From a virus: a stretch of DNA of 64,000 bases. Positions within the stretch are counted from its first letter, which is position 1; each line of letters starts with the position of its first letter. The DNA lies in IMG/VR virus record IMGVR_UViG_3300007177_000160, positions 1-64,000 of that record. One strand, written 5' to 3'. This document shows positions 1 to 59,848 of the stretch, in pieces. The position numbers and the translations under genes are program-made. Under the pieces are notes generated by a model. It worked only from the letters and a program-made list of their open reading frames with translations, made no database searches and was not told where the DNA came from.

Positions 1-1359
1 TTGAGATTGTTTATATGGGTCAGTTCCTGCTGTGTATAGTCCATACGGAGCATCAGCAATTGGATATTCCCAAATAACTACACAACCTTCTAAGTCATCG
101 GCTGGTTTAACTGGAAAGTTCACAACAGGTTTTTTATCAGTAAACCTATGTTTAACCTTACCTTCTGTTGTGTAGTAAAGTTCTACGTTGTCGCCTTCAA
201 TATTATTATTGACTAGTTTTTGTAATTGGTCTTGAAGTAAGTCTACGGGGAAAATGTTCTGCGACATTTCCATAAAACACTCCTCGTGCGTGAGTGGGTA
301 GTACATTACTTCTTTTAGGTAGGCTTCTAAACCAGAGGCTTTTTTTACCTGCTCCCTGTTTTTAAGAATCATCTCCTTACCTTTATCTTGGTCTGATACC
401 CAAATAGTAATATGATCTAATTCTGAAGCCTCTTCTTTTCCTAAATAAAGACCTAATGGAGTAGGCTCTTTTGGAACTTTTAACGAACGTGTTCCAGGAA
501 CAAAGAGTCCGTAAGACTTACCAGTCTCATTTGTTTCTACAGAAAGAAAGTTATAAGCTTCTGGGTTATTAAAAAGTTCTTCTAAGTCCCCTGCTTTCGT
601 CATATCCCCCGACGTTCCAATTACAATAGGAGAACAACGCCAGCCATACGGTGAGTCAAAACAAGGAATGGTTGCAGCCAAGCAGTTTAGGATTCTGCCC
701 TTACCTGCCTCCTCGAGCATAAATGAAGATAAGGTAAGACCTGCCGCTGCTTCCGTGTTATTGCCTTCGTCAAAGTTTCTAACGTGTATCTTGGACCACT
801 CGTGTCTTGCGTTGGTTTTTTTGTCTTTGTAACCAAGAGTTACTTGACGCTTCCAGTCATCTTCAATACGAGGGAATCTAAAATAATCAGGGAGGTTTCT
901 TAATATCAAATCTACGGCTTGAGTAGTATTATTCAAGTCGGGTTGGTTTAGAGCTGATATCAGATTGTCTCCTCCCTGAAGTGTAACTGCCTTGTGGGCT
1001 ATATACGACGAAGTAATAATTGTTTTAGAAATCCGTCGACTTCCTACAATTACTAATCCTTTTCTGGTCTCTGGATGGTTTTCTGCACGATGGATTGCGT
1101 CGTCAATTTCTAAGTAAGTATCCCACAATTGGGGCTTTCCTAGTTTTCTAATATTTCGACTTCCTATTTTTTCGTCAATGTATAATGCGCCAAAATTCAA
1201 ATGCCAATAGATAAATGGCGAAAAATAAAATCCATTGATAGTAACTCCTTCAGTTATTTTTTTGTCCTCAGCCTCCCAAAAAGCCTGATACTCCACAGAC
1301 TCTGGATCTGGAAGTCTCTTGACATTAATCAAAAACTCTGGACTATCTGGATTGTACAT
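1..1359 (-). CDS. terL: Terminase large subunit (partial, 3' end runs off window)
   Basis: Not in the ORF track. Manual translation from ATG at 1359 is open to position 1 (MYNPDSPEFLINVKRLPD...). Walker A-like GSRRISKT, Walker B FMLEEAG, coupling motif VIGTSG and nuclease start AGTDPY. Confidence 0.9.
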   Translation of the reverse strand, partial: MYNPDSPEFLINVKRLPDPESVEYQAFWEAEDKKITEGVTINGFYFSPFIYWHLNFGALYIDEKIGSRNIRKLGKPQLWDTYLEIDDAIHRAENHPETRKGLVIVGSRRISKTIITSSYIAHKAVTLQGGDNLISALNQPDLNNTTQAVDLILRNLPDYFRFPRIEDDWKRQVTLGYKDKKTNARHEWSKIHVRNFDEGNNTEAAAGLTLSSFMLEEAGKGRILNCLAATIPCFDSPYGWRCSPIVIGTSGDMTKAGDLEELFNNPEAYNFLSVETNETGKSYGLFVPGTRSLKVPKEPTPLGLYLGKEEASELDHITIWVSDQDKGKEMILKNREQVKKASGLEAYLKEVMYYPLTHEECFMEMSQNIFPVDLLQDQLQKLVNNNIEGDNVELYYTTEGKVKHRFTDKKPVVNFPVKPADDLEGCVVIWEYPIADAPYGLYTAGTDPYKQSQ

Positions 1360-2035: not shown

Positions 2036-2402
2036 ATTTAGTCCATTTAGGTTCTAGTTGTTTATCTGGATTATCTTCGTTCCAGTCTACGATACCACAA
2101 TCCGAAGAAAGGGACGAGGTTTTGATTTCGAGGATGCAGCCACAAAGCGAACAGTGTAACTCAGGTCGGGCTGTGTTGTAGTGCTTTCCTGTAAGTTCGA
2201 CATATTCCTGGGATAGTCTCGCATTTTGAGAATTGTAGGGACATCCAAGACAACGTTCCATTCGATCTGCAATGATTTCTTTCTTTTCATCACTCAATAG
2301 TCTAAAATGGTTCGCTACCTTGTTCGTCATCCCATGCAAAATCTTGTCCGCATTCTGGAACCCTTTTTTGCTCAAGTTCAGGTATTCTTTGAATAGATTC
2401 AT
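2028..2402 (-). CDS. Cys-rich, probably zinc-binding protein
   Basis: CxxCP...CxxCGC...C motifs with a C-terminal KW. Confidence 0.7.
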   Translation of the reverse strand: MNLFKEYLNLSKKGFQNADKILHGMTNKVANHFRLLSDEKKEIIADRMERCLGCPYNSQNARLSQEYVELTGKHYNTARPELHCSLCGCILEIKTSSLSSDCGIVDWNEDNPDKQLEPKWTKYE

Positions 2403-2859
2403 ATAATTCGGTTAGTTTCTTGTCTATGTGTTCTAGTCTAGCTAAACGATTTGCGTAGACGGCCTCATTAATATCTCCCTCAACTCGCATGCGTTCAATC
2501 CTTTCTTTAAAAGATTTCATTGCAGTCATTAGTTGATTACAACGATAAACTAAGTAAGCAGCAGTAGGTTTTTCAAATTTATTCTCAAGCTCATCAAAGT
2601 AGCGAGCCAAAGATTCTTCTAATCCAAAAACACATCTGCCTAAACCTTTTGTGCCTTCAGTTAAATTTATCTTAAGCATGCCGAGATTCTTAAAGAAAAC
2701 CTGAAGACTAGGTTCTTCTTCAATTTGCTGCAAACTCTTCCCAAGATACCAAGTGTATACCGCATCAACATTATTGACAGTAGTCTTTAATTCTTTGGCT
2801 ACGGAAGAATAAAAACCATATACTCTAAATTCTATTTCACTTGGAGCTGTTATTGCCAT
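2302..2859 (-). CDS. Hypothetical protein
   Basis: 185-aa ORF in the late operon. Confidence 0.7.
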   Translation of the reverse strand: MAITAPSEIEFRVYGFYSSVAKELKTTVNNVDAVYTWYLGKSLQQIEEEPSLQVFFKNLGMLKINLTEGTKGLGRCVFGLEESLARYFDELENKFEKPTAAYLVYRCNQLMTAMKSFKERIERMRVEGDINEAVYANRLARLEHIDKKLTELYESIQRIPELEQKRVPECGQDFAWDDEQGSEPF

Positions 2860-2860
2860 A

Positions 2861-3220
2861 TTATGCTGTTTGTTCGACTGGTACCTGAACTTCTGGTTTC
2901 TTTAAATCTTCGGTACTAAGAATTAAAGTTATAGTAGCTTGGTTCTTGCTTTGTAGACGAAGTTTTGGATTAATTACATTTTTCTCTAACAAACCAAGTT
3001 TCCTGAGTTTAGTGATAGCGTTAGAGATTACCTGCGTAGAAGTTTCATGCTTTGCAGCTAGTTCGTCCTTAATCTCTTTGTTGATAGTTCCATGATAAGA
3101 ACTAAAAGCCAAGATGCTGGTGTACAAATTAGATAATCTATAGCCAGCAACTCTGAGTAAAATGTCTATGTAGGACTGGTGCAGTTCCACGCCTTTGTCG
3201 TATTTTCTTGCTACTTTCAT
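2861..3220 (-). CDS. Putative HTH DNA-binding protein
   Basis: IKDELAAKHETSTQVISNAITKLRKLGLL resembles a winged HTH; has its own promoter at 3235-3266. Confidence 0.6.
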   Translation of the reverse strand: MKVARKYDKGVELHQSYIDILLRVAGYRLSNLYTSILAFSSYHGTINKEIKDELAAKHETSTQVISNAITKLRKLGLLEKNVINPKLRLQSKNQATITLILSTEDLKKPEVQVPVEQTA

Positions 3221-3234
3221 TGGTTGGTTTTAAA

Positions 3235-3266
3235 CAAAGATAATATAGTGATAAAAAAAGTCAAGT
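3235..3266 (-). promoter_or_regulatory. Bacteroidota-type promoter ACTTGA-N18-TAnnTTTG
   Basis: Plus strand reads CAAAGATA(3235)-N18-TCAAGT; same spacing at 6029, 11486 and 12541. Confidence 0.75.
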
Positions 3267-3344
3267 TAAAAGTTATAATATCCTAAGTTAATGTTTAATT
3301 ATAACATAAAATATTAATAGCAAAAAATAAAGATTAATTTATAT

Positions 3345-3614
3345 TTGTGTATGCTCAAAAGAAAACTCCCAACTAAGGACGAAGTATTTGCAGCCCTCAA
3401 AGAGGAACTAGACGAATACGGTGTAGTTATATCAGGCAATATTTCAGCATTTAAAGTTGAGCTTCATAAATCCTTTAAGAAATTTCTAGGCAAGCAGCCG
3501 TACAAAGACAAGCACCTGTACGAGTTTGTCTTTATGGCAGTAGATGACTTGCTAGAAGAAGAACTTCCCTCACAGGTTTCTGATTGTGCACCCGAAGCAC
3601 GCGCTACAAAATAA
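3345..3614 (+). CDS. Hypothetical protein (divergently transcribed)
   Basis: 89-aa ORF preceded by TATATTTG; real start probably the ATG at 3351. Confidence 0.6.
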   Translation: MCMLKRKLPTKDEVFAALKEELDEYGVVISGNISAFKVELHKSFKKFLGKQPYKDKHLYEFVFMAVDDLLEEELPSQVSDCAPEARATK

Positions 3615-3663
3615 TTGTGCAGCATCCTGTTGCACTTCTTGAATTTTCTTTCTAATATTGCAG

Positions 3664-3970
3664 TGACACCATCTTACCAGGTGATCGCCTGTGAGGGCAC
3701 GATTGTGAAGTAGCAGGCCAGAAGTCGGATAGTAGTTTGCAGGCATCGACCACATAGCAGACGAGGTTTCTCCGATAGTGTCAAAAAAGGTAGTTATTTG
3801 AAAGGTACAGTGCCATACCCTAGCACAGCTAGGCAACAGGGTGGACACAATATGGACTCATTGTCGACAGCTCTGCGTAGCTTCGACAGCGTTTGGTAAA
3901 CAAGCTGATTGGAATGTAGGATTCGCTCTCTTCCCTTCTTGTCGAGACTGCTGTACTATAAGATTGCTAT
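3664..3970 (+). ncRNA. Candidate ~300-nt structured non-coding RNA
   Basis: Upstream promoter GTTGCA-N18-TAATATTG (3629-3660), downstream terminator, higher GC than its surroundings, many nested stems, no credible ORF. Confidence 0.6.
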
Positions 3971-3980
3971 TAAATAAAAA

Positions 3981-4010
3981 TACCCTGGCAAAACTTGTTT
4001 GCCTAGGGTA
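3981..4010. terminator. Hairpin terminator between convergent units
   Basis: TACCCTGGCAAA...TTTGCCTAGGGTA flanked by an A-run. Confidence 0.7.
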
Positions 4011-4031
4011 CTTCTATATTTGGAAACTACC

Positions 4032-4397
4032 TTATTTTAAACGTTGAATTTCTGCACCAATTTGTTGAGCTGTAAATGATGCTTTCATTCCGATTCCAGC
4101 TTCCCAACGTTTTACTTCTACACCGTCTTTGAAAAAGACTACAGTGGGGAGGGTGACAATCTTATGCTTAGACTTTGCTAAGGGGTTCTTAGCTATGTCT
4201 ACTTCTTGATAAGCACACCACTTGATTGTTTCAAATCCAGTTACGTTAGGGGAACTGTGCCAACTAGCATTAAACTGTACTAACACATATTTAGATGCCG
4301 CTGGGTTAAACGGAGCAGGCTGTGCGGTTTCTGTTGTAAAGATTGCAGCTACAAAAGCTACAATGAATAAAGAAAAGATTCCTAGGATTGTTTTCAT
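4032..4397 (-). CDS. Exported thioredoxin-fold protein lacking CxxC
   Basis: Signal peptide; VLVQFNASW...VDI...IVTLPTVVFFKDG thioredoxin pattern; WHSSP in place of WCxxC. Confidence 0.75.
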   Translation of the reverse strand: MKTILGIFSLFIVAFVAAIFTTETAQPAPFNPAASKYVLVQFNASWHSSPNVTGFETIKWCAYQEVDIAKNPLAKSKHKIVTLPTVVFFKDGVEVKRWEAGIGMKASFTAQQIGAEIQRLK

Positions 4398-18500: not shown

Positions 18501-20968
18501 GCAGTCTCATAGTTGAGACCCATAATCCAACCAGGCTGTGTAGTATCTTGATGAACCCAGGACGATGAAATATCACGCACAATGTTTGCCATCATGCTAA
18601 TTCCTTTATATCCAGTACCAGTCTCTGGCATTATAGAAGAATTACTGTTACCTACAAATATTGCAGGATATGCAGCTGAATTGGTATGTCTAGAAGGAAG
18701 TGTTGTACCAAACAACATGTTCTTACCAGCAGATGTAGATAGATCTCCTTGAATTCTTGCAGTTCCATTTACGTCTAACTTAAAGCCAGCATCCGTAGTA
18801 GTTCCTATTAGAACGTTTCCAGAACTTGTCGCTAGTTGTACGCCAGTTGTATTAGAAAACGTTCCAGTCACAGCAACACCTGCAGTACCAACACTTAAGC
18901 GTTTTGTTCCGCCTGTACCTAATCCTACTTCATATAAACCCTGTATATAAGTTGATCCTTCAGTAGTTAATGCGCCCGTTCCGCCAACAAACTCAATGAA
19001 GTTTGATCCTCCATAACCAGAAGTATCAAATTGTCTAATACGTGTTCTACCGCCTGTTACCTGGGTGTTTAACATAGTGACAATTATACCCGCACCTCTG
19101 TTGACACTTGCACTTCCTCCTGGATTTATCACACGTAAAAGGTCCGTATCTGTTGTTGCTGTTTGAATGTCTAAATCAAATGTCGGAGCAGAAACACCAA
19201 TACCTAAACGCTTGTTTGTATTATCATAAAGTAATCCAGTACTTCCTCCAACTCGTAAACCATAATTGGTAACACCCGTAAATGCACCATTGGTAAACGT
19301 AGGATCTATATCCAAGCCTACTAATACATCATTGTTAGCAGCAGCAACTAAGGTATTGTTAAAATACACTCCTCTTGCAAGTGCTGAGGTTGCTGTAACA
19401 CTGCCTACAACACTCAAAAAAGAATTACTCCCTTTTGTTAAAGATGGTGAATTACTTATTAAAAGACCGTTTGTAGCAGCTAAATGATTGTATAACCAAC
19501 CATAAGTAACCCATCCGTAAGCAGTATTGTTGTAAATTCTGTTAGACGCATCGTAAAATACACCCGAGCTAGTACCTTGTCCTACTTGAATAGCACCCCC
19601 AGCTGTATTAATACCTGCAGGCGCAGTTATTAAACCTACACTGCGCATGGTTCCATTTACATCTAACTTGTAACCCGCGTCTGTGAAAGTACCTCCATTT
19701 TGAATTAATACATTCCCAGAACTAAATATTTTAAAATCTGGATTTCCGTCAGAAGTCCTATTATGTTGAAATGAACCATCGTTATTTAATTGTAATAAAA
19801 AATAATTAGGAGTTGCTCCTTGATGGAAGAAACCAAGATAATCTCCTGTCCTGTGATATCCTATGGTTGCTTTATTAACAGAATTTATTTGAAATCCAAA
19901 ATTAGCATTTCCAGTACCAGTATTATTTACCATAAAGGTAAAGTTGCCACTACTTGTATTAGTGACTGTTAGTATAGGAGATGTAGTAGAACTTGCACCA
20001 ACTATATTTGTAATACCGTTTACAGTCAACCCACCAACAGTAATACTATTCATAGTAGTGTTCCCAGCAGAAGTTACTTGGTCTAAAGTAGGAACAGAAG
20101 TTAAGAAGTTAGGAGTCCAGTTCTTCCAGAGACCGTCTGAGTCTCTACGAAGAAGTTGGCCTGTAGATGGAGCAGAGATAAGAACATCGTGGATTTCGTT
20201 TAACTCGAATCCGTTCTGTACTTTTACAAAAATCTCTCCGTTGTTATTGTTTACGCGAGTAACAACACCCAAAAACACCATATGGGCAGGTGCTACAGGC
20301 TTGTTTGCTAGACCATAAAGCAGGTTCCCGTTAGTGCCTAACCATACAAGGTCGCCTAACGTAGCCATTGAGGTATCTAACCCAGTTAGTAGGCCTTCTG
20401 TAATTACAAAACCTTTACCGTTAAGAGCAAGATCCTGAGCAATAAGACCCATAGTCTTACTGGAAGTCATCTCAGAAGCGTTAGAAGCCTTTGTAACAAT
20501 CATGTTTGTACCGTCCGATGACGAAACATACACAGCCTGTCCTCTCAAAAGCACCTCACCTGCTTTGACTTCGTGTTTAACAGTAGAAGTCCACTGTGCG
20601 TAGTTATCAATCCACTCTACATTATAATCAGTATTATTAATCTTTGCTAAGATTTGCCCTGTTGAACCACCTGGAGGTAGGTTTCCTCCTGCTGTAGCCA
20701 CTGATTTCCAGGTTCCGTCATCAGCCAAGTAAAGATTTCCTGTACCAATAGCTCCTGTACCCAACCTATTGGGGTCGATGATACCTGTAGAAATATAAGC
20801 TGCGTCAAATAATCGCCATCTTACAGGACCTGCCTGAGTAGCAGGAGGTACCAAAAAGTAAGCAGGCGGCATATATAACTCATTGGCACTGCCATCTCTA
20901 GGATGTAAGGGATTATATCTTGCTAAATCCTGTTGTTCTTGAGTAGTTATGGGATTGCTATAAGGCAT
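12572..20968 (-). CDS. Giant modular tail fibre (2798 aa)
   Basis: About nine GNVLIGTTTDAGFKLDVNG-type repeats, several GNVGIGTT.P...L.V repeats and three PTL.QVT.AGNTT repeats; G/T/N/S-rich. Confidence 0.9.
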   Translation of the reverse strand: MPYSNPITTQEQQDLARYNPLHPRDGSANELYMPPAYFLVPPATQAGPVRWRLFDAAYISTGIIDPNRLGTGAIGTGNLYLADDGTWKSVATAGGNLPPGGSTGQILAKINNTDYNVEWIDNYAQWTSTVKHEVKAGEVLLRGQAVYVSSSDGTNMIVTKASNASEMTSSKTMGLIAQDLALNGKGFVITEGLLTGLDTSMATLGDLVWLGTNGNLLYGLANKPVAPAHMVFLGVVTRVNNNNGEIFVKVQNGFELNEIHDVLISAPSTGQLLRRDSDGLWKNWTPNFLTSVPTLDQVTSAGNTTMNSITVGGLTVNGITNIVGASSTTSPILTVTNTSSGNFTFMVNNTGTGNANFGFQINSVNKATIGYHRTGDYLGFFHQGATPNYFLLQLNNDGSFQHNRTSDGNPDFKIFSSGNVLIQNGGTFTDAGYKLDVNGTMRSVGLITAPAGINTAGGAIQVGQGTSSGVFYDASNRIYNNTAYGWVTYGWLYNHLAATNGLLISNSPSLTKGSNSFLSVVGSVTATSALARGVYFNNTLVAAANNDVLVGLDIDPTFTNGAFTGVTNYGLRVGGSTGLLYDNTNKRLGIGVSAPTFDLDIQTATTDTDLLRVINPGGSASVNRGAGIIVTMLNTQVTGGRTRIRQFDTSGYGGSNFIEFVGGTGALTTEGSTYIQGLYEVGLGTGGTKRLSVGTAGVAVTGTFSNTTGVQLATSSGNVLIGTTTDAGFKLDVNGTARIQGDLSTSAGKNMLFGTTLPSRHTNSAAYPAIFVGNSNSSIMPETGTGYKGISMMANIVRDISSSWVHQDTTQPGWIMGLNYETANTDMFAIYRSAATAGTANFVRLFTINGAGNVLIGTTTDAGFKLDVNGTGRFSGNVTVTGSATNSLTVRGSGFTGSTNAFTVLNSLGNSLFTVSDVGGITATQSDFTTNTVVALGLQARVNQNLTISAPWADSTNVTIEVIANKAQVLVVRPNATLTLTSGTHDTQRITHTFAPTSGTAVVNALTLNQTINQTGGASGISRGLYVNPTITAAADFRAIETTVGKVIHQGLTNATQTNQVYYNTTTGELTYGALPTPATPTLAQVTTAGNTTTNSISVGAITSSGAIRSTLDTTGNALELFGAFSYYSGVQIGGVGLDKSPYINLFANGGATTSINFTRQNTPGVTFKIMHSYSQGIAQTPSFLGIGVDGTSIRILGDTGNVLINQGTDAGFKLDVNGGTRIKGTGTTSTTTSFLVQDSTNTNILQLRDNGSLLLRGPSAGNYTLGVRELPDGAIQIMTDFNIIGMTIYSSAIERMSRIISRRLGGAGVLVIDTNFGTADASAMFEIRSTSFGFLQPRMINAQAVAIATPATGLQVYDITNNKNLLYNGTAWQNIATESWVTAQGYLTSAPIPTLAQVTAAGNTTTANITVSTHITIKANSDSVYSVGNNNFNNISLAANTFGFGRNILSVATSTSETVALGDSALNESAFSYRNIAIGTGAGRKTQKTAGNLTVGGSNVFVGVDAGAKVDLGYSNTFLGDAAGSTMDVLETVAVGAFAGGGSGISTLTQGYSVYLGFRAGGSSTAGDNVFIGYDAGLNSTKSNWFILGNRNNAGLIEGNFSTGNVLIGSSTDNGTNKLQVNGSISATGGTSTNWNTAFSWGNHASAGYLTSFTETDPTVPSHVKAITTTNISNWNTAYSWGNHATAGYLTSVSDVWVNTTGDTMTGQLVISTSGTAGNPTLRVNSSNSGDYVHSQENIAANLTSGQRNILVIGQAPSLKNSGYFGYYWAGAGSDSNFITMGHWGNNDLFRIYGNGNVLINTTVDAGYKLDVNGSFRATSNSYLATNANTLVGIGVTTAFAKLHVQGADGLLLLQGNGAAGQFFPTQLIRGGYPRFVLQSEDGAVTFGGLYTTQDKTGNPWGNLVISSRTAMLFLIESYSGSTPVFSFDGSNTYVANQLNVATNLVVTSNFTVDTNTFFVNATTNRVGIGTTSPSVLLQAGAKVIDDNNYAYTSGAAMFVNQTQTSASVLNDPQEVLILARQGTAGQAFGAAAVFELSRFENFGTSSRTRLDIKLADGFFLPNSTRVMTMLSNGNIGIGTSAPETPLHVVGGTRITGTFPYVNLRGAYPNISFQSDDGSMTYGTITTVQAYGTNPFGNLVIQSRTALYFYVNTFSDTIPALSLLGGNVQVGLNIDYGYKFDVNGTLRSVNSAYFATTSGSVGIGTTSAVAKLNIVGGSANWNETTPGQTPGTIHLDPGVSTDNFGNAITFGASDYSDGDNAQAGIYVRSDGSYGTKMYFATTDLYTTGSKTRMVIDNSGNIGINTASPAYNFDIRRTNLQVHLSSLAENQNVSLFFNTAYDSSTLPRTAIIAAAVGSWSRSALYFCLNNATSGNPGVGVADVKMIITPGGNVGIGTTNPDALLTVSADKFGTLGGAISVVNSSEGSGSVSGIYMGSYARKTAIFYNWTANYGRGELIFATNNVADGSNAWVTDGKMHIKANGNVTIGTSTDSGFKLDVNGNTIIRGNLSMTDASNRYIYGINGNYINLYNGGTGGVEIYGLNGTAENKIYGGLRVTGNLITQGSFTMNGSLDIGSNNSVYAGTNGIVYYRGFDASMQFFLGHPTVGDFLWDYPAGTTLMTLKRGGNLLIGTTTDSGYKLNVNGSFRSNGDSYVASANGRVFGFDGLSAGQTLHFQYGGDSNHRISTTHGSAAQMDAYHGLIIRTSPASGGKALIVNQRNSAHFIQEWQENGTQKAYINSQGNLYLAQLDAEADGPVISTSGLLSSVAGYSGTVTIQQPAPLPPINIDVQNGIIVNVF

Positions 20969-21051
20969 AGGTATTGGAGTCGCATAAGGCGACTATACAA
21001 ATATAAGTGTTTAACGGAAAAAGTAAAGATTTAACCTTTTAAGTTAAAGGC

Positions 21052-21543
21052 TTAATCTGCTTGCCACCAAAACTTAACAGGCTTGTCGGATACTTCCCCA
21101 ACGATGCCTTCAGAGGAGGCAGAAACCAGCTTAACAACAGTCAAACTATCCTTAGTGTAGCCTCCTGTTACGAGTTCTCCTACAAGATCCCCTGCATAGT
21201 TAAAGTCTTTGGCGTAAACCAAGACAATACGAGCTACATTTTGTTTCCACATAGGCACCAAAGCAGTAAACATAGCTAGATATTTTTCTTTAATTTCTGC
21301 GAGATCTGATTCGTTTGGAATATCGATCGAAATAATGTTAGGGATAAGTTTCGGAATAAGTTTATCTGAAGCTACTAACGAGTGAGCAACCCGCATAGCC
21401 AAAGAACTAGAGTACTTAGGACCTACGCAAAAAATCGCACAGTCTTTAATAGACTCAAATTTCACCTTAGAAGAAACCTCTAAACAAACCTTCTGTATAA
21501 GAGACTCTTCTCTTTCTCTATCTAATAATAAAACATTCTCCAT
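21052..21543 (-). CDS. Hypothetical alpha/beta protein (possibly a degenerate PRTase-like fold)
   Basis: 163 aa with alternating beta/alpha pattern; fold call is weak. Confidence 0.5.
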   Translation of the reverse strand: MENVLLLDREREESLIQKVCLEVSSKVKFESIKDCAIFCVGPKYSSSLAMRVAHSLVASDKLIPKLIPNIISIDIPNESDLAEIKEKYLAMFTALVPMWKQNVARIVLVYAKDFNYAGDLVGELVTGGYTKDSLTVVKLVSASSEGIVGEVSDKPVKFWWQAD

Positions 21544-21550
21544 ATGCAGA

Positions 21551-21568
21551 CAAAGATAGTTAAATTTG
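21551..21568. promoter_or_regulatory. Back-to-back divergent TAnnTTTG promoters at the strand switch
   Basis: CAAAGATA (minus strand TATCTTTG) at 21551 and TAAATTTG (plus strand) at 21561. Confidence 0.65.
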
Positions 21569-21575
21569 AAGTAAG

Positions 21576-22274
21576 ATGATAAAGGTTATCTTTGACCATA
21601 TAGAAGGCTTTGGTAAAATCACCGAGCAAGACTTCATCTACTCAGATCCCAAAGGAATCGCTGTAGGCAAGGACTATGTTGACTATTTAGAGAGTGGATG
21701 GGTAGAGTGGGGAGTTTACTGGTACAATTTAAGATCTGTTCGACTAGATTTAAGAAAGTACGAAGCCAGCAAAACGACGCGAAAGCTAGCCAAAAACATT
21801 AAATGTAATACTCATCGGTTAACTTCGGAGATTATAGAGCAGTTAGAACCTGTTTACGCCCAGTACATAGAGAAGCATAAGTTCCAGCGAGAGATAAACC
21901 TAAAAGACTTTTTAGACACAGAGGACTTTTTTGTCCTTCTCTACTACAAAGAAGAAGAACTGATAGGCGCGTTGATTCACAAAGTGTACGAGCAAGGCGA
22001 AAAAACCGCATTTGTATCTTATCAGTTCCTATGGGACTACAAAGAACCCAAACTATCTTTAGGTAATATCTCTCAGATGTACGAATCCGAACTAGCAAAA
22101 CTAATGGACTGTGACTATCTTTACATTTTAGGAGGCTACGAAGAATCCTGCATATACAAATCCCAGTTCAGAGGATTTGAATGGTGGACAGGAAAAGAAT
22201 GGTCTACTGATATCTCACTTTATACTAAACTATGCCAAAGAGACTCGCATGCACATATACGAACCCCACAATAG
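21576..22274 (+). CDS. Aminoacyl-tRNA-protein transferase-like protein (ATE1/Bpt C-terminal GNAT family)
   Basis: SVRLDLRKY..SK..RK, Y..Y...H, WDY..PKLSLG......E..A......YLYILGGY...C.YKSQF.GFE match the ATE_C pattern. Confidence 0.75.
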   Translation: MIKVIFDHIEGFGKITEQDFIYSDPKGIAVGKDYVDYLESGWVEWGVYWYNLRSVRLDLRKYEASKTTRKLAKNIKCNTHRLTSEIIEQLEPVYAQYIEKHKFQREINLKDFLDTEDFFVLLYYKEEELIGALIHKVYEQGEKTAFVSYQFLWDYKEPKLSLGNISQMYESELAKLMDCDYLYILGGYEESCIYKSQFRGFEWWTGKEWSTDISLYTKLCQRDSHAHIRTPQ

Positions 22275-22455
22275 AATAGAAGTAAAAACCCCCAAAGGAA
22301 ACGGTATAATCTGGTTAGTCACAGACTACGGCCACGAAACCGACACAATCTATACCATAATACTAGATAACGGAGAACTATGGCAATTTACTCACAAAGA
22401 TATAAGAGTAAGAAACAACCTAACCTTTGGTAGAGTGGTCCCTCCCTCTTCTTAA
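22249..22455 (+). CDS. Small hypothetical protein
   Basis: Likely start MHIYEPH; TPKG.G..W...DYG.E...GELW pattern. Confidence 0.65.
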   Translation: MHIYEPHNRIEVKTPKGNGIIWLVTDYGHETDTIYTIILDNGELWQFTHKDIRVRNNLTFGRVVPPSS

Positions 22456-22625
22456 AATTTTTTCCTACCCCCCCCAATTTTTTTTCTAACCCCCTACCCA
22501 ATTATATCTATGGGAGCTTGGGGGCCAAAATTTTTCTACCCCTGGGACTGAATCAGATCTACGAGAGTTTGGGGGTGTCCAAATTCATCAGCCCCCTATG
22601 CCTTTGGCGGACACGGTGTCCCCCA
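22455..22625. repeat. Low-complexity repeats AAATTTTT(T)(C)CTACCCC x3 and GAG(C/T)TTGGGGG x2; candidate terminus/packaging region
   Basis: Seen at about 22455, 22476 and 22527, and at about 22514 and 22565. Confidence 0.6.
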
Positions 22626-22642
22626 CTTACATATATACAGAT

Positions 22643-23062
22643 ATGACAAAAACCACTACCAACGTTGGTGATGTTCAGGAGAATATCGACAATGCGTCCG
22701 CAGTAGACGAAACTACTACAAACTCTGTACTTGCTAACCTTGGTAACTCAAGAGACGAGAGCCGAAAGCAGGGAGAGTTGAAAACCGAATCAATCGTTAC
22801 TTGCGTTGAGGTTATACCTACCAAGGGGTCTAACGCAGGTAGGCAGATGTTTGTCATTAACGGCAAGCATTGGTCTCGTCACAAGCCTGCGGATACCGAC
22901 AATACCGTTGTGCTTGAGTTTGCGACTTGGGACGGTGGTTCGGGTTGGAACGTTATCGGTTTCAATCAGGACGCTCGTGTGATGAGTATTGACGCGAAGA
23001 TTGCCAAACTTACGGCTCACGATGCGGCTTACTCTCAAGCGATTGCTTTGTTGTTACGCTAA
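22643..23062 (+). CDS. Hypothetical protein, isolated, GC-richer codon usage
   Basis: Probable start ATG 22643 after CAGAT; followed by a strong UUCG terminator. Confidence 0.75.
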   Translation: MTKTTTNVGDVQENIDNASAVDETTTNSVLANLGNSRDESRKQGELKTESIVTCVEVIPTKGSNAGRQMFVINGKHWSRHKPADTDNTVVLEFATWDGGSGWNVIGFNQDARVMSIDAKIAKLTAHDAAYSQAIALLLR

Positions 23063-23068
23063 CCGATT

Positions 23069-23098
23069 GGGGCAGGGCTTCGGCTCTGTCCCTTTCTT
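23069..23098 (+). terminator. Intrinsic terminator
   Basis: GGGGCAGGGC-TTCG-GCTCTGTCCC-TTTCTT. Confidence 0.85.
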
Positions 23099-23185
23099 GG
23101 GTAATTGGTCTGCCTTCGGCAGTAGTTGTTGTTGAATCTCACTTCGTTCGATGCTTCGCTCTCGGTGCTGTACGCTGTGCTGTAA

Positions 23186-23213
23186 GCGGTGCGTGATACG
23201 CGGTGCGTGATAC
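23186..23213. repeat. 14-bp tandem repeat GCGGTGCGTGATAC x2 with degenerate copies upstream
   Basis: Direct observation. Confidence 0.85.
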
Positions 23214-24101
23214 GTCGTTTTCTTGGGTGTTACACTTCTCTAAAACCTGTGTAATAATCGTAGAAATTGTACTTCAGCTCCAGCTCTCGGCTAAAATCAG
23301 TGTATTTTGCAGTTTTGTTTAACTTTTTTGGTCTAACCCCCGTAAATTTGGAGACCTTTAAATTAAAAAGTTAAACAAAATGACAATTCAATGACACAAA
23401 TTGAGGTAAAAAAGGGTTAAAAAGTGGGGATTTTCCCCTCTCAGTCCTTTAATTCTTTCCTAAAAACAAGTCATTTGGTTGAGGCTTGACGTATAGAAAT
23501 AAAGAGGATTCGGTTAAAAGAGTCAGACAGATGGGCTTAACTGGGTTTATTATCGTCTCTATTGTTCTTATCTCTCCCTCTCCTTCTCTCTCTCTTTTCT
23601 CTTTCATTACCTCTTATTAAGGTAATGAACTAATCAGTGTTATGCGCGGGTTTCGGCTCCTGCTCTCTATTGATTCTTTATTAATTCTTTATTGATTCTT
23701 TAAGGTTGATAAACCTTGACATGCCTATGGGGCTACTATGTTGTTCTTCTATTAAGGGTAGAAGTATCAAGCTTAAGCGAATTTCCTTGCTTAAAGCAAT
23801 GACAAGTTAGTGCAGACTTAAAAATTAGGCAGTCTATTACATCTATTATCGTATGATGTAAAGACTTTAAAGACTGGTAACAGTTACGATACAGTATAGA
23901 GAAACCACACTATACTTTATGCCAGGTTTGTGGTGAACCTGAATTTAGAATGTTCTATACGTATTAGTATAGACTTCGGTTTAGTAGGGGGTGTGCATCA
24001 GCTCTGAAATGTTAGGCGACATTTCTGCTACTAGATTTATTTTAATTTAAAAACTAAAAAGGGATATCAGCCGTATCCCGAAGTCCTCAAATAAGCAGAT
24101 T

Positions 24102-24320
24102 ATGTTACAGACATACACAATAATTAGGAAAAACTTTGCTGTTGTTAACCACTTAGAGTATCAACAAGCAAAAGAACTTGCAGATGATGGTGACATGATC
24201 CTTACAATTAAGGATAATCATGTTTCTGCCATTAGAAATGTAACTGTCGTAGAATATCATGGTGAACCACATAAAGAGTGTGACCATATAGAAGGCGATA
24301 TTACACCTTTCTATCAGTAA
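24102..24320 (+). CDS. Hypothetical early protein
   Basis: 72 aa, followed by a hairpin. Confidence 0.65.
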   Translation: MLQTYTIIRKNFAVVNHLEYQQAKELADDGDMILTIKDNHVSAIRNVTVVEYHGEPHKECDHIEGDITPFYQ

Positions 24321-24381
24321 GATCCAACACCTAAGCAAGTGTTTAAACTGCTTTTACTTTTAAACTAAATAAAAAACAGAT

Positions 24382-24825
24382 ATGGCTACTCAAGATAACA
24401 AATTCTACTTAACTAATGTAAAGAATGTTGCCGCTACGCTCTCATCTATTCAGGCAGAATATCCTACTTTCTGTCAGTTATTAGATTTAGATGCTTTGCG
24501 TAGATTAGTTAAGGAAAAAGGCGACTTGCTTTTATTTCCTAAGAAAGATTGCTCTCATATAAATGTTTACGAACTAGCAGAACAAGGGATTATGTTTTTT
24601 CTTACACCTGGATTTACTTATGGTAGACACAGACATAGAACGCGACTTAATCACGCGTGCTGGTTTTCTAGAAAGCCAGAAATTATGTTTCTAACCGTAA
24701 GACAGGCTATGATTAAAGATCCTAAATATATGATTTGGGTGTACAAAAATCTTTCTATTAATTGGAGTCTGCACTGTATTGCAAACTTTGAATTTCTAAT
24801 TAAAAAATACAACGTAGGGGTGTAA
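24382..24825 (+). CDS. Hypothetical protein with ExoX-C/DUF3820-like motif
   Basis: FTYGRHR...TV......DPKYMIW resembles FGKYKG...DP.Y..W. Confidence 0.55.
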   Translation: MATQDNKFYLTNVKNVAATLSSIQAEYPTFCQLLDLDALRRLVKEKGDLLLFPKKDCSHINVYELAEQGIMFFLTPGFTYGRHRHRTRLNHACWFSRKPEIMFLTVRQAMIKDPKYMIWVYKNLSINWSLHCIANFEFLIKKYNVGV

Positions 24826-24864
24826 CAGCCCCTTTAAACTTAAACTAAATTAAATTATAACCTA

Positions 24865-25020
24865 ATGGATATGATAATTAGAATAACAGCACCTGATGGA
24901 TTTACAGTAGATAAATCTTGGAAAGGGAATTTCTCTAATGAACAAGAGTTATTAGAGGATTTTGTAAATAGTCATACTTTTCTAGTAGGCTATAAGTTTG
25001 AATTAATTAAGGGGGCTTAG
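24865..25020 (+). CDS. Small hypothetical protein (51 aa), not in ORF track
   Basis: MDMIIRITAPDGFTVDKSW...; A-rich leader. Confidence 0.6.
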   Translation: MDMIIRITAPDGFTVDKSWKGNFSNEQELLEDFVNSHTFLVGYKFELIKGA

Positions 25021-25029
25021 GCTCCCTTT

Positions 25030-25337
25030 TACTTTAACACACCATAACTCACGTGGATATAAAGACTTCTTAGAACCGTGTCACCTCTCAAACTCTGAGT
25101 GACTTAAAGCTGATAACAGTAAACGAGCTAAGATGTAAAACCACACTGATTAATAGTTCTCTATACCAGATAAAACCTTAAGCCAAACGTAATGGTGGGC
25201 TAGTGTATAGAATGAAAGTTAATCAGTTTCCCAAGAGTGAGCAGTTGTAATACACCATACAGGTCTAACAGTCAGAATTCATTCAAATGATATCTACTGT
25301 ATGTTCAAGGTATTACAACTGAGTGTGGAGGGGAGTA
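25030..25337 (+). ncRNA. Twister-like self-cleaving ribozyme core with a 175-nt insertion
   Basis: P1 TACTT/GAGTA, UAA, P2 CACAC/GTGTG, P4 CTCAC/GTGAG, L4 TTCCCAAGA, P5 CAGTTGTAATAC/GTATTACAACTG and GAGGG, all in twister order. Confidence 0.6.
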
Positions 25338-25370
25338 TCCATGTACAACAGGCTGGCATGGCAGCAAAAT

Positions 25371-25428
25371 AAACTACAAGGTATGGTAATCCTACTAACA
25401 CAGCTAGCGGACCTTGTAGTTTTTTTTT
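25371..25428 (+). terminator. Long-stem terminator after the ribozyme
   Basis: AAACTACAAGGT...ACCTTGTAGTTT followed by a T-run. Confidence 0.7.
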
Positions 25429-25452
25429 AATTTTAAATCAATCAACACTAAT

Positions 25453-25707
25453 ATGAGTAATCTTACTTGGACCACCAAAGACGGCACTGTTATGTATGTA
25501 GACAATATGTCTGATGAACATGTCCGCAATGCTTTTAAAATGCTTCTTAGAACTATCAATAAACTTAAAGCTGAAAAACAAAAAAGTGTACGCAAGTTTA
25601 CACTTAGTGGAGATATGGCTCAACAGTTTAATCAGACAAACTTTGAAGATGAAAATGACGAAAGATTAGATGAAGTTTGGGAAGACGTATCTTTTCTTAA
25701 TCACTAA
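25453..25707 (+). CDS. Hypothetical protein
   Basis: WTTKDG......MSDEHVRN motif common in small phage proteins. Confidence 0.75.
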   Translation: MSNLTWTTKDGTVMYVDNMSDEHVRNAFKMLLRTINKLKAEKQKSVRKFTLSGDMAQQFNQTNFEDENDERLDEVWEDVSFLNH

Positions 25708-25858
25708 ATAAACTAAATAAACTTAATCTGCAATCATTTACTCTTTTGTATTACATCCTGTTAGATTAGGATTCTTCATAAGGTAAGTACTTGATTGTAT
25801 AAGTTAAAACAATAAAAAAATTAAAACCAATTAAAACCAATTAAAACTATTTAAAATT

Positions 25859-26596: not shown

Positions 26597-26671
26597 GGCG
26601 TATTCGTCTAACGGTCAGGACAATCACTTTTCGAGTGATAAATAGTAGTTCGATTCTGCTATACGCTACCA
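26597..26671 (+). tRNA. tRNA-Glu(UUC) with encoded CCA
   Basis: GGCGTAT/ATACGCT acceptor, ATCAC-TTTTCGA-GTGAT anticodon arm, AGTAG-TTCGATT-CTGCT T arm, ACCA end. Confidence 0.92.
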
Positions 26672-28328: not shown

Positions 28329-28398
28329 AGTCAGGTGGCGTAATTGGTAACGCCTTGGTTTATTACAAGAGATACGAGTTCGAGTCTCGTCCTGGCTG
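28329..28398 (+). tRNA. tRNA-like RNA with aberrant anticodon arm (identity undetermined)
   Basis: AGTCAGG/CCTGGCT acceptor, GCGT/ACGC D stem and ACGAG-TTCGAGT-CTCGT T arm are intact; anticodon arm is CTTG-GTTTATTA-CAAG (4 bp, 8-nt loop). Confidence 0.7.
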
Positions 28399-48199: not shown

Positions 48200-49171
48200 T
48201 GGAAAAACTATTAAACATACCAGATGATTGGTATAGTAAACTCAAGCACATCGTAGAGTCAGATTATTTCAAACAACTCTCTGCTTTTATTAAACAGAGA
48301 AGATCCGTTACTGCTGTATTTCCACACAGCAACGAAGTATTTAGAGCATTTAATGAAACTCCATTTGGGAAGATACGCTGCGTCATTATTGGTATGGATT
48401 AAAGAAATTTGCGTATAAATTAATACCTTACGCAAATAGGGTCCATGTAAAACGGGGAGAATTGCTGGAACATCCTAACAAGGACAATCAGCAGCCGAGC
48501 TTAGACAGTAATGTCTTTGAAGGTTCAACGACTAACAACCGAGTCCTACCAGATAATACTGAGGACAGTAATGTTGACACGAGCACCCTGCACTAATTTA
48601 ATTAGTGATGATATAGTCTGAACTATATAGTAATATATAGAAGTGTATGATAAAGAACTTACACGATAACACAATGCCATACCCAACCCTTTACAATGGA
48701 CAACCAGTAGCTTGTGGGCTAGCATTTGCACCTAGATACAAAGAATTTGTACCTCCGTCTCTTAGAATGATTTATAAAAACCTCAAGGACGGTTTATACA
48801 AAAACGATTTAGATTGCCCAGAAACTCTAGATTTTACTAGTTGGGCACAACAAGGTGTATTCTTACTTAATGCAGCTCTTACAGTAGAGCATACTAGAGC
48901 AGGTTCACACCTAAAACAATGGGCTCCATTTACAGAAGCAGTAATTAAAGCTATCTCAGATAATTCATCTGGAGTTATCTTTTGTTTCTGGGGTAAAGAT
49001 GCTCAACAATACAGACAATTTGTAAACCATAGTGCACATTACGTTCTACTGGCACCGCATCCTGTATCAGCTGTATACAAAGGTGGTACGTGGGACTGTC
49101 ACCACTTTGAAGAAGTCAACGAGATATTAAAAAGAAATAATGGAGAAACAATCCAATGGCTGAGTTCCTAG
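48199..49171 (+). CDS. ung: Uracil-DNA glycosylase, split: exon 1 48199-48399, exon 2 48677-49171 (231 aa spliced)
   Basis: Splicing restores VIIGMD|PYP; also GLAF, PPSLR, WAQQGVFLLN.ALTV, SH...W, FWG..A, HP.S. Confidence 0.92.
48400..48676 (+). mobile_element. Group I intron (277 nt, no ORF) in ung
   Basis: 5' exon ends in U and pairs with the IGS (ATGGAT/GTCCAT, U-G pair); P AATTGCTGGAA, Q AATCAGCAG, R TTCAACGACTAA, S GATATAGTCT; terminal omega-G at 48676. Confidence 0.93.
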
Positions 49172-59440: not shown

Positions 59441-59478
59441 AAAGAAAACCCAGTCTTAATAGGCTGGGTTTCTTTTTT
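59441..59478. terminator. Bidirectional terminator at the convergence point
   Basis: AAAGAAAACCCAG...CTGGGTTTCTTTTTT. Confidence 0.85.
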
Positions 59479-59480
59479 CG

Positions 59481-59848
59481 AGGAGATAGAGGGAATTGAA
59501 CCCTCGTCCAGAGAAAGCTGCAATTTAATGCTGTTTACACGCTTAGTACTGAGCAAGCTCTGCACCGTAAGGGTTGACCGAAGTCAGATTCCACCACCTA
59601 GTTGAGTTGTCGGTAAACTAGGAAACCTAGAAGCAAGCTTCATGTGCCATTTTCTGTTCCAGGGGATGACTCCCCGTGACTTAGGCTGCCATTTGATATT
59701 CGTTCACGAACTCAACTGCATCTTCAAAAGTCATGTCAGATAATTCTACGTTGCCGTTTAATTAGTTTGATACGTGATTATAGAGAACAGTACCATCTCT
59801 CTGCGTGAGCACTAAACCCAATCAATCCTGTCGATTCCTGTTATCCCC
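59481..59848 (-). ncRNA. ssrA: tmRNA; tag (A)GNVELSDMTFEDAVEFVNEYQMAA
   Basis: 5' GGGGATA...GGAATCGAC; 3' GAC-GAGGG-TTCAATT-CCCTC-TATCTCC with G3-U70; tag ORF 59755-59681 ends AA*; promoter TAACTTTG just upstream. Confidence 0.93.

Follow-up and report, generated by a model that had tools for sequence, protein, structure and literature searches.

What does a short, GC-rich interval without a credible open reading frame encode when it lies between two phage operons and is transcribed against them? The window analysed here, 64,000 nucleotides long, opens a virus record of 114,265 bp that carries terminal repeats. A terminase search with the TerL of this phage finds crAss-like, Flavobacterium and Cellulophaga phages, which agrees with the putative assignment of the record to a freshwater crAss-like phage. 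An earlier note, made from the sequence alone, had read the interval as encoding a highly structured RNA, about 300 nt long, that has a promoter and a terminator to itself. The strings and coordinates behind that reading were all confirmed in the sequence:

3629-3634, plus strand: GTTGCA, followed after an 18-nt spacer by TAATATTG at 3653-3660
3664-3673, plus strand: TGACACCATC
3774-3783, plus strand: GATAGTGTCA
3805-3810 and 3952-3957, plus strand: GTACAG and CTGTAC
3724-3729 and 3771-3776, plus strand: GTCGGA and TCCGAT

The GC content is 45-48% across 3550-3850 and 24-38% in the flanks, and the claim of a GC-richer stretch holds.

Folded on its own, the sequence is no stabler than its shuffles (z = -0.34 on the plus strand and -0.65 on the minus strand). 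The case for an RNA therefore rests on homologues. The first three related loci were obtained through the proteins flanking the RNA site, and a 20-nt block, unvarying among the three, was used as a search pattern that returned 23 viral and 45 metagenome contigs. Loci L030-L101 were left out as mostly chance pattern matches. Matches to an 18-mer in a genome collection (L103-L108) fail the covariance model and were rejected as chance. We built two covariance models, R1 for the whole core and R2 for its first domain only. R1 has 234 positions and 48 pairs and was made from 17 short members, with the window's own copy left out. It finds that copy at full length (model positions 1-234), which defines the core of the RNA:

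3661-3966, plus strand: conserved RNA core with both domains (R1, 117.6 bits, E 1.6e-27)

By the same search the core is single-copy in the 114-kb genome, and other genomes also carry one copy each. Pair statistics were taken from 78 R1 matches, 53 of them distinct. Among the distinct homologues, standard pairs fill 96.3% of pair cells, compared with 80.8% when columns are shuffled and 29-48% when partners are slid by 1-3 columns. Compensatory change is found in 31 of the 48 pairs, and both sides of a pair have changed in 399 cells. The homologues fall in few clades, and the compensatory cells are not independent events. A mutual-information search for tertiary pairs gave no trustworthy extra pair, its signal being dominated by clade structure. 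Helices P2, P3, P5, P6, P7 and P8 covary freely. P1 and P4 are nearly invariant in sequence, and their exceptions are C/U changes that give G-U wobbles. Such wobbles form on the plus strand only, which identifies plus as the RNA strand.

A protein-coding explanation is excluded by the same homologues. The longest stop-free plus-strand frame has a median of 31 aa, so that no conserved ORF was found, and the core lengths (209-310 nt) show no triplet pattern. The structured, ORF-free RNA first inferred from one sequence is thus well supported across its relatives. Positions 3661 to about 4010 of the plus strand are a stand-alone gene, of roughly 300-350 bases, for a stable, highly structured non-coding RNA.

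To which family does the RNA belong? Rfam 15 was searched at gathering thresholds over the whole 64 kb, and at E <= 10 over positions 3300-4300 and 13 homologue loci. No family matched at the RNA, even at E <= 10, in the stretch or in those loci. The models without a match included the RNase P RNAs (RF00010, RF00011, RF00373 and RF02357), phi29-type pRNA (RF00044), GOLLD (RF01998), ROOL (RF03087) and, at the RNA site, the ribozymes and introns Hairpin, Hatchet, twister, HDV-like and Intron_gpI. RNase P, GOLLD and ROOL, among the families once listed for checking at this locus, are therefore not found here. A blastn search of the region against GenBank phages gave no match. Run on crAss001, Cellulophaga phage phi14:2 and Leptolyngbya phage Lbo-JY46, R1 and R2 found nothing significant, the best being a 43-nt partial match in crAss001 (E 0.27). 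The RNA belongs to an uncatalogued family, absent from Rfam 15. Nothing relevant was found in the literature on crAss non-coding RNAs; PMC10690425 has unnamed candidates, left unchecked, and the family could be one of these.

GOLLD and ROOL are comparable in kind. They too are stand-alone, heavily structured RNA genes on phages, prophages and mobile elements, occur in lake and rumen samples, have no nearby protein partner and are of unknown function. They differ in size (roughly 500-800 nt, against a core of 209-310 nt here) and in architecture, which here is a four-way junction plus a second domain, and neither matches in sequence or structure.

Elsewhere in the 64 kb, Rfam gives gathering-level matches to a Hatchet ribozyme, a group I intron, a tmRNA and two tRNAs (in that order, 23696-23830, 48386-48640, 59478-59848, 26597-26668 and 28329-28398).

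The first of the two domains is organized around the junction.

3665-3782, plus strand: domain 1, a four-way junction of P1, P2, P3 and P4, supported by covariation and invariance
3665-3669 with 3778-3782, plus strand: P1 (GACAC/GUGUC), invariant except for C/U changes giving G-U wobbles
3670-3673 with 3680-3683, plus strand: P2, three of four pairs compensatory
3687-3691 with 3714-3718, plus strand: P3, all five pairs compensatory
3719-3723, plus strand: J3/4, the sequence-invariant joiner CAGAA
3724-3729 with 3771-3776, plus strand: P4, invariant except for C/U changes giving G-U wobbles
3735-3740 with 3757-3762, plus strand: P4b, a variable hairpin, from the fold model
3763-3782, plus strand: near-invariant 20-mer GAGGUUUCUCCGAUAGUGUC, from the homologue alignment

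P4 is the pairing of GTCGGA with TCCGAT proposed earlier. Homologues support it, with 99.4% of its cells paired, and its internal loop, likewise invariant in sequence, sets UAGUA opposite GAGGUUUC. A 10-bp helix had been thought to close the domain; its outer 5-6 bp stand as P1 (GACAC/GUGUC), but its inner bases belong to P2 and P4. The 20-mer spans the 3' side of the P4 internal loop, the 3' strand of P4, J4/1 and the 3' strand of P1. All 52 distinct sequences scored agree in its 14-base core, UCUCCGAUAGUGUC, which recurs in rumen variants. The GAGG of the 20-mer reads UUGG in 7 of the 52. A copy on a bacterial chromosome (G141) keeps the block only to ...CCGAUAG and ends in GGUA rather than UGUC. 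A four-way junction with two invariant blocks was taken as a criterion for membership in this family, and the window satisfies it, with AGAAGUYGGAU.GUA at 3720-3734 and GGUUUCUCCGAUAGUGUC at 3765-3782.

Two likenesses were seen by eye. CAGAAGU and CCGAUAGUGU (3719-3734 and 3770-3782), together with CCGAU.GUAGUGU, resemble bacterial 5S rRNA, the first two being like two of its most conserved stretches. The Rfam 5S model does not match, and the likeness was set aside as coincidence or, at most, motif mimicry. Loop-E-type internal loops (AGUA/GAGG) are present in P3 as well as in P4.

The P4b hairpin is the changeable part of the domain. Two phages that are 94% identical over the RNA have wholly different versions of it (3730-3762 in the window, 3388-3414 in locus L002). 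One is a long form with a 6-bp stem, the other the short form seen in other lineages. Judged from these sequences, P4b seems to be a hot spot for recombination or insertion. In a lake phage, L121, the loop of this hairpin is replaced by a 126-aa ORF (L121:1588-1968, minus strand) that lies inside the RNA (L121:1420-2047), with the GGGA/UCCC closing stem kept. The ORF carries a CxxC...HVDHCH...CNxCN motif of the endonuclease VII/HNH type, identified by eye; here a homing-endonuclease gene is contained within the gene for a non-coding RNA.

Could the invariant junction be a catalytic or small-molecule-binding core, making the RNA a ribozyme or a ligand sensor? Invariant helices and joiners surrounded by freely covarying peripheral stems are the usual signature of such a core. 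The genome is rich in ribozymes (the Hatchet and the group I intron), an ORF occupies a peripheral loop as in introns, and the string AGAAGUC is reminiscent of loop A of the hairpin ribozyme. Against this, neither the stretch nor the 13 homologue loci match any ribozyme or riboswitch model at E <= 10, contigs from RNA libraries run unbroken through domain 1, and in the aquatic phages there is no downstream gene on the same strand for a riboswitch to regulate. We consider this explanation unlikely, although sequence alone cannot rule out a ribozyme or aptamer core.

The second domain follows a short linker.

3783-3804, plus strand: A-rich linker with a small hairpin (helix 6), weakly supported
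3805-3957, plus strand: domain 2, closed by P5 and holding P6, P7, a joiner and P8
3805-3811 with 3951-3957, plus strand: P5, six of seven pairs compensatory
3813-3817 with 3851-3855, plus strand: P6, all five pairs compensatory
3819-3823 with 3829-3833, plus strand: P7, all five pairs compensatory
3834-3850, plus strand: conserved joiner CAA..GUGGACA.AA, from the homologue alignment
3860-3945, plus strand: P8 and two lineage-specific expansion hairpins, the latter missing from most homologues

In helix 6, 81-84% of cells are paired and two of three pairs are compensatory. GTACAG/CTGTAC, proposed to close the domain, is P5, and the hairpin CCTAG..CTAGG is P7; homologues support both. Other hairpins drawn from the single sequence fare less well. 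Those formed by GTCGA..TCGAC and GGAA..TTCC exist, but lie in the two expansions, which only the window's copy and its 94%-identical relatives possess. The hairpin CAGC..GCTG is not conserved, and its loop, UUUGGUAAA, is instead a conserved single-stranded block.

These helices bear on the speculation that the molecule is a divergent or permuted RNase P RNA. It had arisen from strings resembling the conserved regions CR-I and CR-V (AGAAGUCGGA, and GACAGAAC..GACUUA in relatives), and the phage does encode tRNAs and a tmRNA that require 5' processing. The likeness to bacterial RNase P RNA (RF00010, RF00011) goes no further than such short motif echoes. AGAAGUCGGA pairs locally with UCCGAU, and CAGAG pairs with CUCUG in helix 8, where all five pairs are compensatory. 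With the CR-like strands taken up by local helices that are conserved or covary, there is no long-range P4 helix of the RNase P kind. The putative AAGUC/GACUU pairing is broken in two homologues, L013 and L021, there is no specificity domain, and none of the RNase P models matches at E <= 10. The reading is close to refuted, and we regard it as extremely improbable.

How is the RNA made? Its gene is bounded by signals on both sides.

3629-3660, plus strand: promoter, with a -33-type TTG (3630-3632) and the Bacteroidota-type -7 box TAATATTG (3653-3660)
3958-4010, plus strand: 3' tail with a conserved UAUAAG, and a terminator-like hairpin at 3981-4010, supported by the fold, by homologues and by the ends of RNA contigs

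In 50 of the 53 distinct homologues a TAnnTT[TC]G box lies just ahead of model position 1, its end 0-3 nt away, and it is kept also at loci that lack the ORF c2 upstream. A scan for the sigma-70 consensus found nothing in the promoter region, as expected for a promoter of the Bacteroidota type. At the other end, every lineage has a hairpin, of differing sequence, 15-30 nt beyond the core; the window's is shared with a convergent thioredoxin-like gene (4032-4397, minus strand). The gene's own promoter and its own terminator, both part of the original claim, are thus borne out.

Expression was looked for in metatranscriptomes. Contigs from three studies cover 3678-3989 (as 3678-3844 and 3836-3989), 3681-3980 and 3763-4054, and the flanking genes are uncovered in these runs. 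RNA contigs end at 3980 and 3989. Contigs from RNA libraries attest presence only, without strand or true 5' and 3' ends, and palindromic hairpins break RNA-seq assemblies. One run, X18, covers the flanks too, perhaps from DNA or read-through, and was not counted as evidence of a discrete transcript. Within these limits, the RNA is expressed in nature.

Together with the small ORF ahead of it, the RNA forms an antisense island between the tail-side module and the packaging operon. The earlier description of it as transcribed against the late genes, behind an 89-aa ORF, is borne out.

3351-3614, plus strand: c2, a small ORF (87-89 aa, or 87-90 aa across the loci) in which no domain is recognized; it opens the island and is optional
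2861-3220, minus strand: c0, 119 aa, winged-helix-like, the first gene of the divergent packaging operon
2302-2859, minus strand: c1, about 183 aa, HU/IHF-like at its N-terminus by eye, in the packaging operon ahead of TerL
1-1359, minus strand: TerL (phrog_6681, E 5e-85)

In about 38 loci one side of the RNA is fixed, consisting of c0 as the immediate neighbour, c1, three small proteins and TerL, all divergent from the RNA. The other side is variable and always converges on it. The AlphaFold model of c0 (pLDDT 83.7) resembles MarR-type wHTH proteins only weakly and without significance (E 0.3). c2, usually placed between c0 and the RNA, has no match in Pfam, PHROG, PADLOC or NCBIfam, and only four clusters of homologues were found. 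It is present at 29 RNA loci, missing from about 9, and missing also from the integrating elements described below, which argues against the 89-aa protein as the partner of the RNA.

Some features of the neighbourhood are recorded as observations. A packaging-operon start with c0 and c1 ahead of TerL recalls lambda Nu1 and IHF at cos, and the AT-rich gap at 3221-3344 (24-26% GC) could hold divergent promoters as well as the packaging site. Among cultured phages, Leptolyngbya phage Lbo-JY46 (L157, PP438436.1:109126-122847), isolated on a cyanobacterium, has the closest terminase (39% identity). In this phage the place upstream of the packaging operon is taken by a long tRNA array.

The placement of the island raises the possibility that the element acts in cis. 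Its transcript, or its transcription, would then insulate or tune the late operons that converge on it and diverge from it, whether by termination, by transcriptional interference or by competing with the c0 promoter. The island is indeed antisense between two same-direction operons, has a two-way terminator in common with the upstream module and lies 150-440 bp from the c0 promoter region. Interference, however, needs no elaborate fold conserved from lakes to rumen. Domain 1 also occurs in unrelated contexts, after int-xis genes or ahead of same-strand genes (L136), and in RNA libraries the RNA is more abundant than its neighbours. A purely cis-acting role is decidedly improbable in our view.

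Is the RNA required by the phages that carry it? We surveyed 51 loci found with c0 as the query. The RNA is in place at 37 of them and missing from 13 with adequate flanking sequence, where the tail-side gene c7 abuts c0. No copy was found anywhere in the whole records of five RNA-less phages (100%, 92%, 86%, 81% and 66% complete). One RNA-less phage has a c0 nearer to that of the window's phage (71%) than many RNA-bearing phages have, and the presence of the RNA is therefore patchy. Weak, non-significant R2 matches in RNA-less sisters (E 0.24-3; L208:1440-1544, L206:1027-1138 and L209:1476-1580) lie inside coding sequence upstream of c0 and were treated as chance.

This distribution weighs heavily on the idea of an essential RNA of the packaging motor in the manner of phi29 pRNA. 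The island adjoins the TerL operon, and the RNA resembles phi29 pRNA (RF00044) as a phage-encoded, two-domain molecule beside packaging functions, with loop-E-like internal loops that, by eye, could bind protein. Yet it is missing from complete or near-complete sister genomes, from the 13 c0 loci and from the five whole records, two of them at least 92% complete. It differs from pRNA also in that the TerL here is canonical, the Rfam pRNA model does not match, and copies occur in integrating elements without packaging genes. A motor RNA of this kind is very improbable. The broader suggestion of an essential packaging or scaffold RNA is likewise unlikely, since sister phages with the same packaging operon do without it.

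A better comparison is with phage morons, which are independent promoter-gene-terminator units inserted between phage genes, a concept from the lambdoid phages. Like them, the island has a host-type promoter and a terminator, runs against the flanking operons and is found in some related phages only; it differs in that its cargo is a structured RNA and not a protein, save for the optional 87-aa ORF. With its own promoter and terminator, and a presence/absence polymorphism at one site, it meets the criteria of a moron. c2 and the RNA are an optional, horizontally mobile, moron-like transcription unit and not a core phage function.

How far does the RNA extend beyond the aquatic phages? Domain 1 alone has a wider range, which takes in rumen elements and an element of about 5 kb at a tRNA-Ser gene. 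Three rumen-type contigs (L136:1767-2001, L139:1104-1342 and L141:15-233) retain domain 1, in which P3 covaries, P2 is longer and P4b is simple, and have an unrelated domain 2. In L136 the RNA lies 3.7 kb from a tyrosine integrase with an HNH endonuclease nearby, and its own U-rich terminator is followed by same-strand genes. The rumen locus and the phage have no common protein except an HNH endonuclease, and c0 shows no similarity to a 159-aa protein of L136. On bacterial chromosomes, R2 found one copy (47.6 bits) when 151 sampled Bacteroidota genomes were searched, and the same copy was the only one in a pattern scan of 401 Bacteroidota genomes. This copy (G141) directly follows an integrase gene and an HTH_17 excisionase-like gene, within a small element:

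L159:6811-11788 (= G141:C9, about 20810-25787): integrative element of about 4.95 kb at tRNA-Ser(gga) in a Bacteroidota genome

Its att repeats are 13-nt copies of GCGGAGACCGAGG, 4,952 bp apart, and its cargo comprises the integrase, the HTH_17 protein, domain 1 and ORFs of 318, 101 and 213 aa. In the rumen and chromosomal elements, Pfam, PHROGs, PADLOC and NCBIfam recognized no proteins other than integrase, HTH_17 and HNH. The element meets the criteria for a satellite in being small and having an integrase and att repeats at a tRNA gene. It is possibly a phage satellite; packaging by a helper has not been demonstrated. Domain 1 is thus the conserved, portable core of the RNA.

These copies allow a further explanation, in which the tRNA elements of about 5 kb are satellites of crAss-like phages and share domain 1 with their helpers. 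The RNA could then mark DNA, recruit c0, c1 or TerL, or serve in sensing of or interference with the helper. The invariant core does occur in the 4.95-kb tRNA-Ser element, and the rumen copy of L136 lies near an integrase. In the phages, the RNA is always beside the start of the packaging operon, which is where cos and pac sites usually lie. There is also precedent for small packaged elements, as elements of 5-6 kb are packaged in marine phage particles, including in Flavobacteria (PMC9618062). Several observations stand in the way. Sister phages with the same operon package their DNA without the RNA, the 20-mer pattern found no small element among viral contigs, a copy exists in only 1 of the 401 sampled Bacteroidota genomes, and no helper-satellite pair has been shown. 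We find such a satellite-helper link rather unlikely. Its fuller form is somewhat more doubtful still, namely that domain 1 is exchanged between crAss-like phages and satellites of about 5 kb as a handle of parasitism, recruiting packaging proteins or a host factor to the DNA that encodes it. If true, it would be the first RNA-based link between helper and satellite, and these would be the first satellites described for crAss-like phages.

What, then, does the RNA do? A role as an antisense regulator of its own genome was rejected, the longest complement elsewhere in that genome being 11 nt. Only domain 1, with its invariant junction, is constant across phages, rumen elements and a chromosomal element, and no encoded protein travels with it, so the partner of the RNA is probably supplied by the host. 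The best explanation at present is that the RNA works in trans by binding a conserved host factor, as yet unidentified, a proposal to which we give even credence. Under this proposal, host RNA polymerase would read the RNA from its Bacteroidota-type promoter and the transcript would end at the hairpin. The invariant junction would be a docking platform for a host protein or RNA conserved across Bacteroidota, which might be captured, decoyed or re-directed, and no phage-encoded partner would be implied. Domain 1 is inferred to be the working part, and domain 2 and the P4b hairpin would be exchangeable accessories. We hold this explanation as a whole no more firmly than its opposite. The step to a host factor is itself inferred, by exclusion and from the pattern of invariance, and the invariant helices could equally mark a catalytic core or ligand pocket. 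The constant adjacency of the RNA to the packaging operon also remains unexplained by it.

Few viruses of Bacteroidota are as abundant in guts and waters as the crAss-like phages, yet next to nothing is known of their non-coding RNAs. For one such RNA this work provides a covariance model, a fold with good support, signs that it is expressed in nature and, as its defined functional core, domain 1, whose function is inferred. The RNA is an optional, mobile unit that tiny integrating elements share and that a homing endonuclease targets. It joins GOLLD and ROOL in kind as an orphan structured RNA, and is a candidate for new RNA biochemistry. Natural pairs of phages with and without the RNA are now at hand for testing, and the search for its role is narrowed to host interaction or to interplay between elements, not core virion biology.
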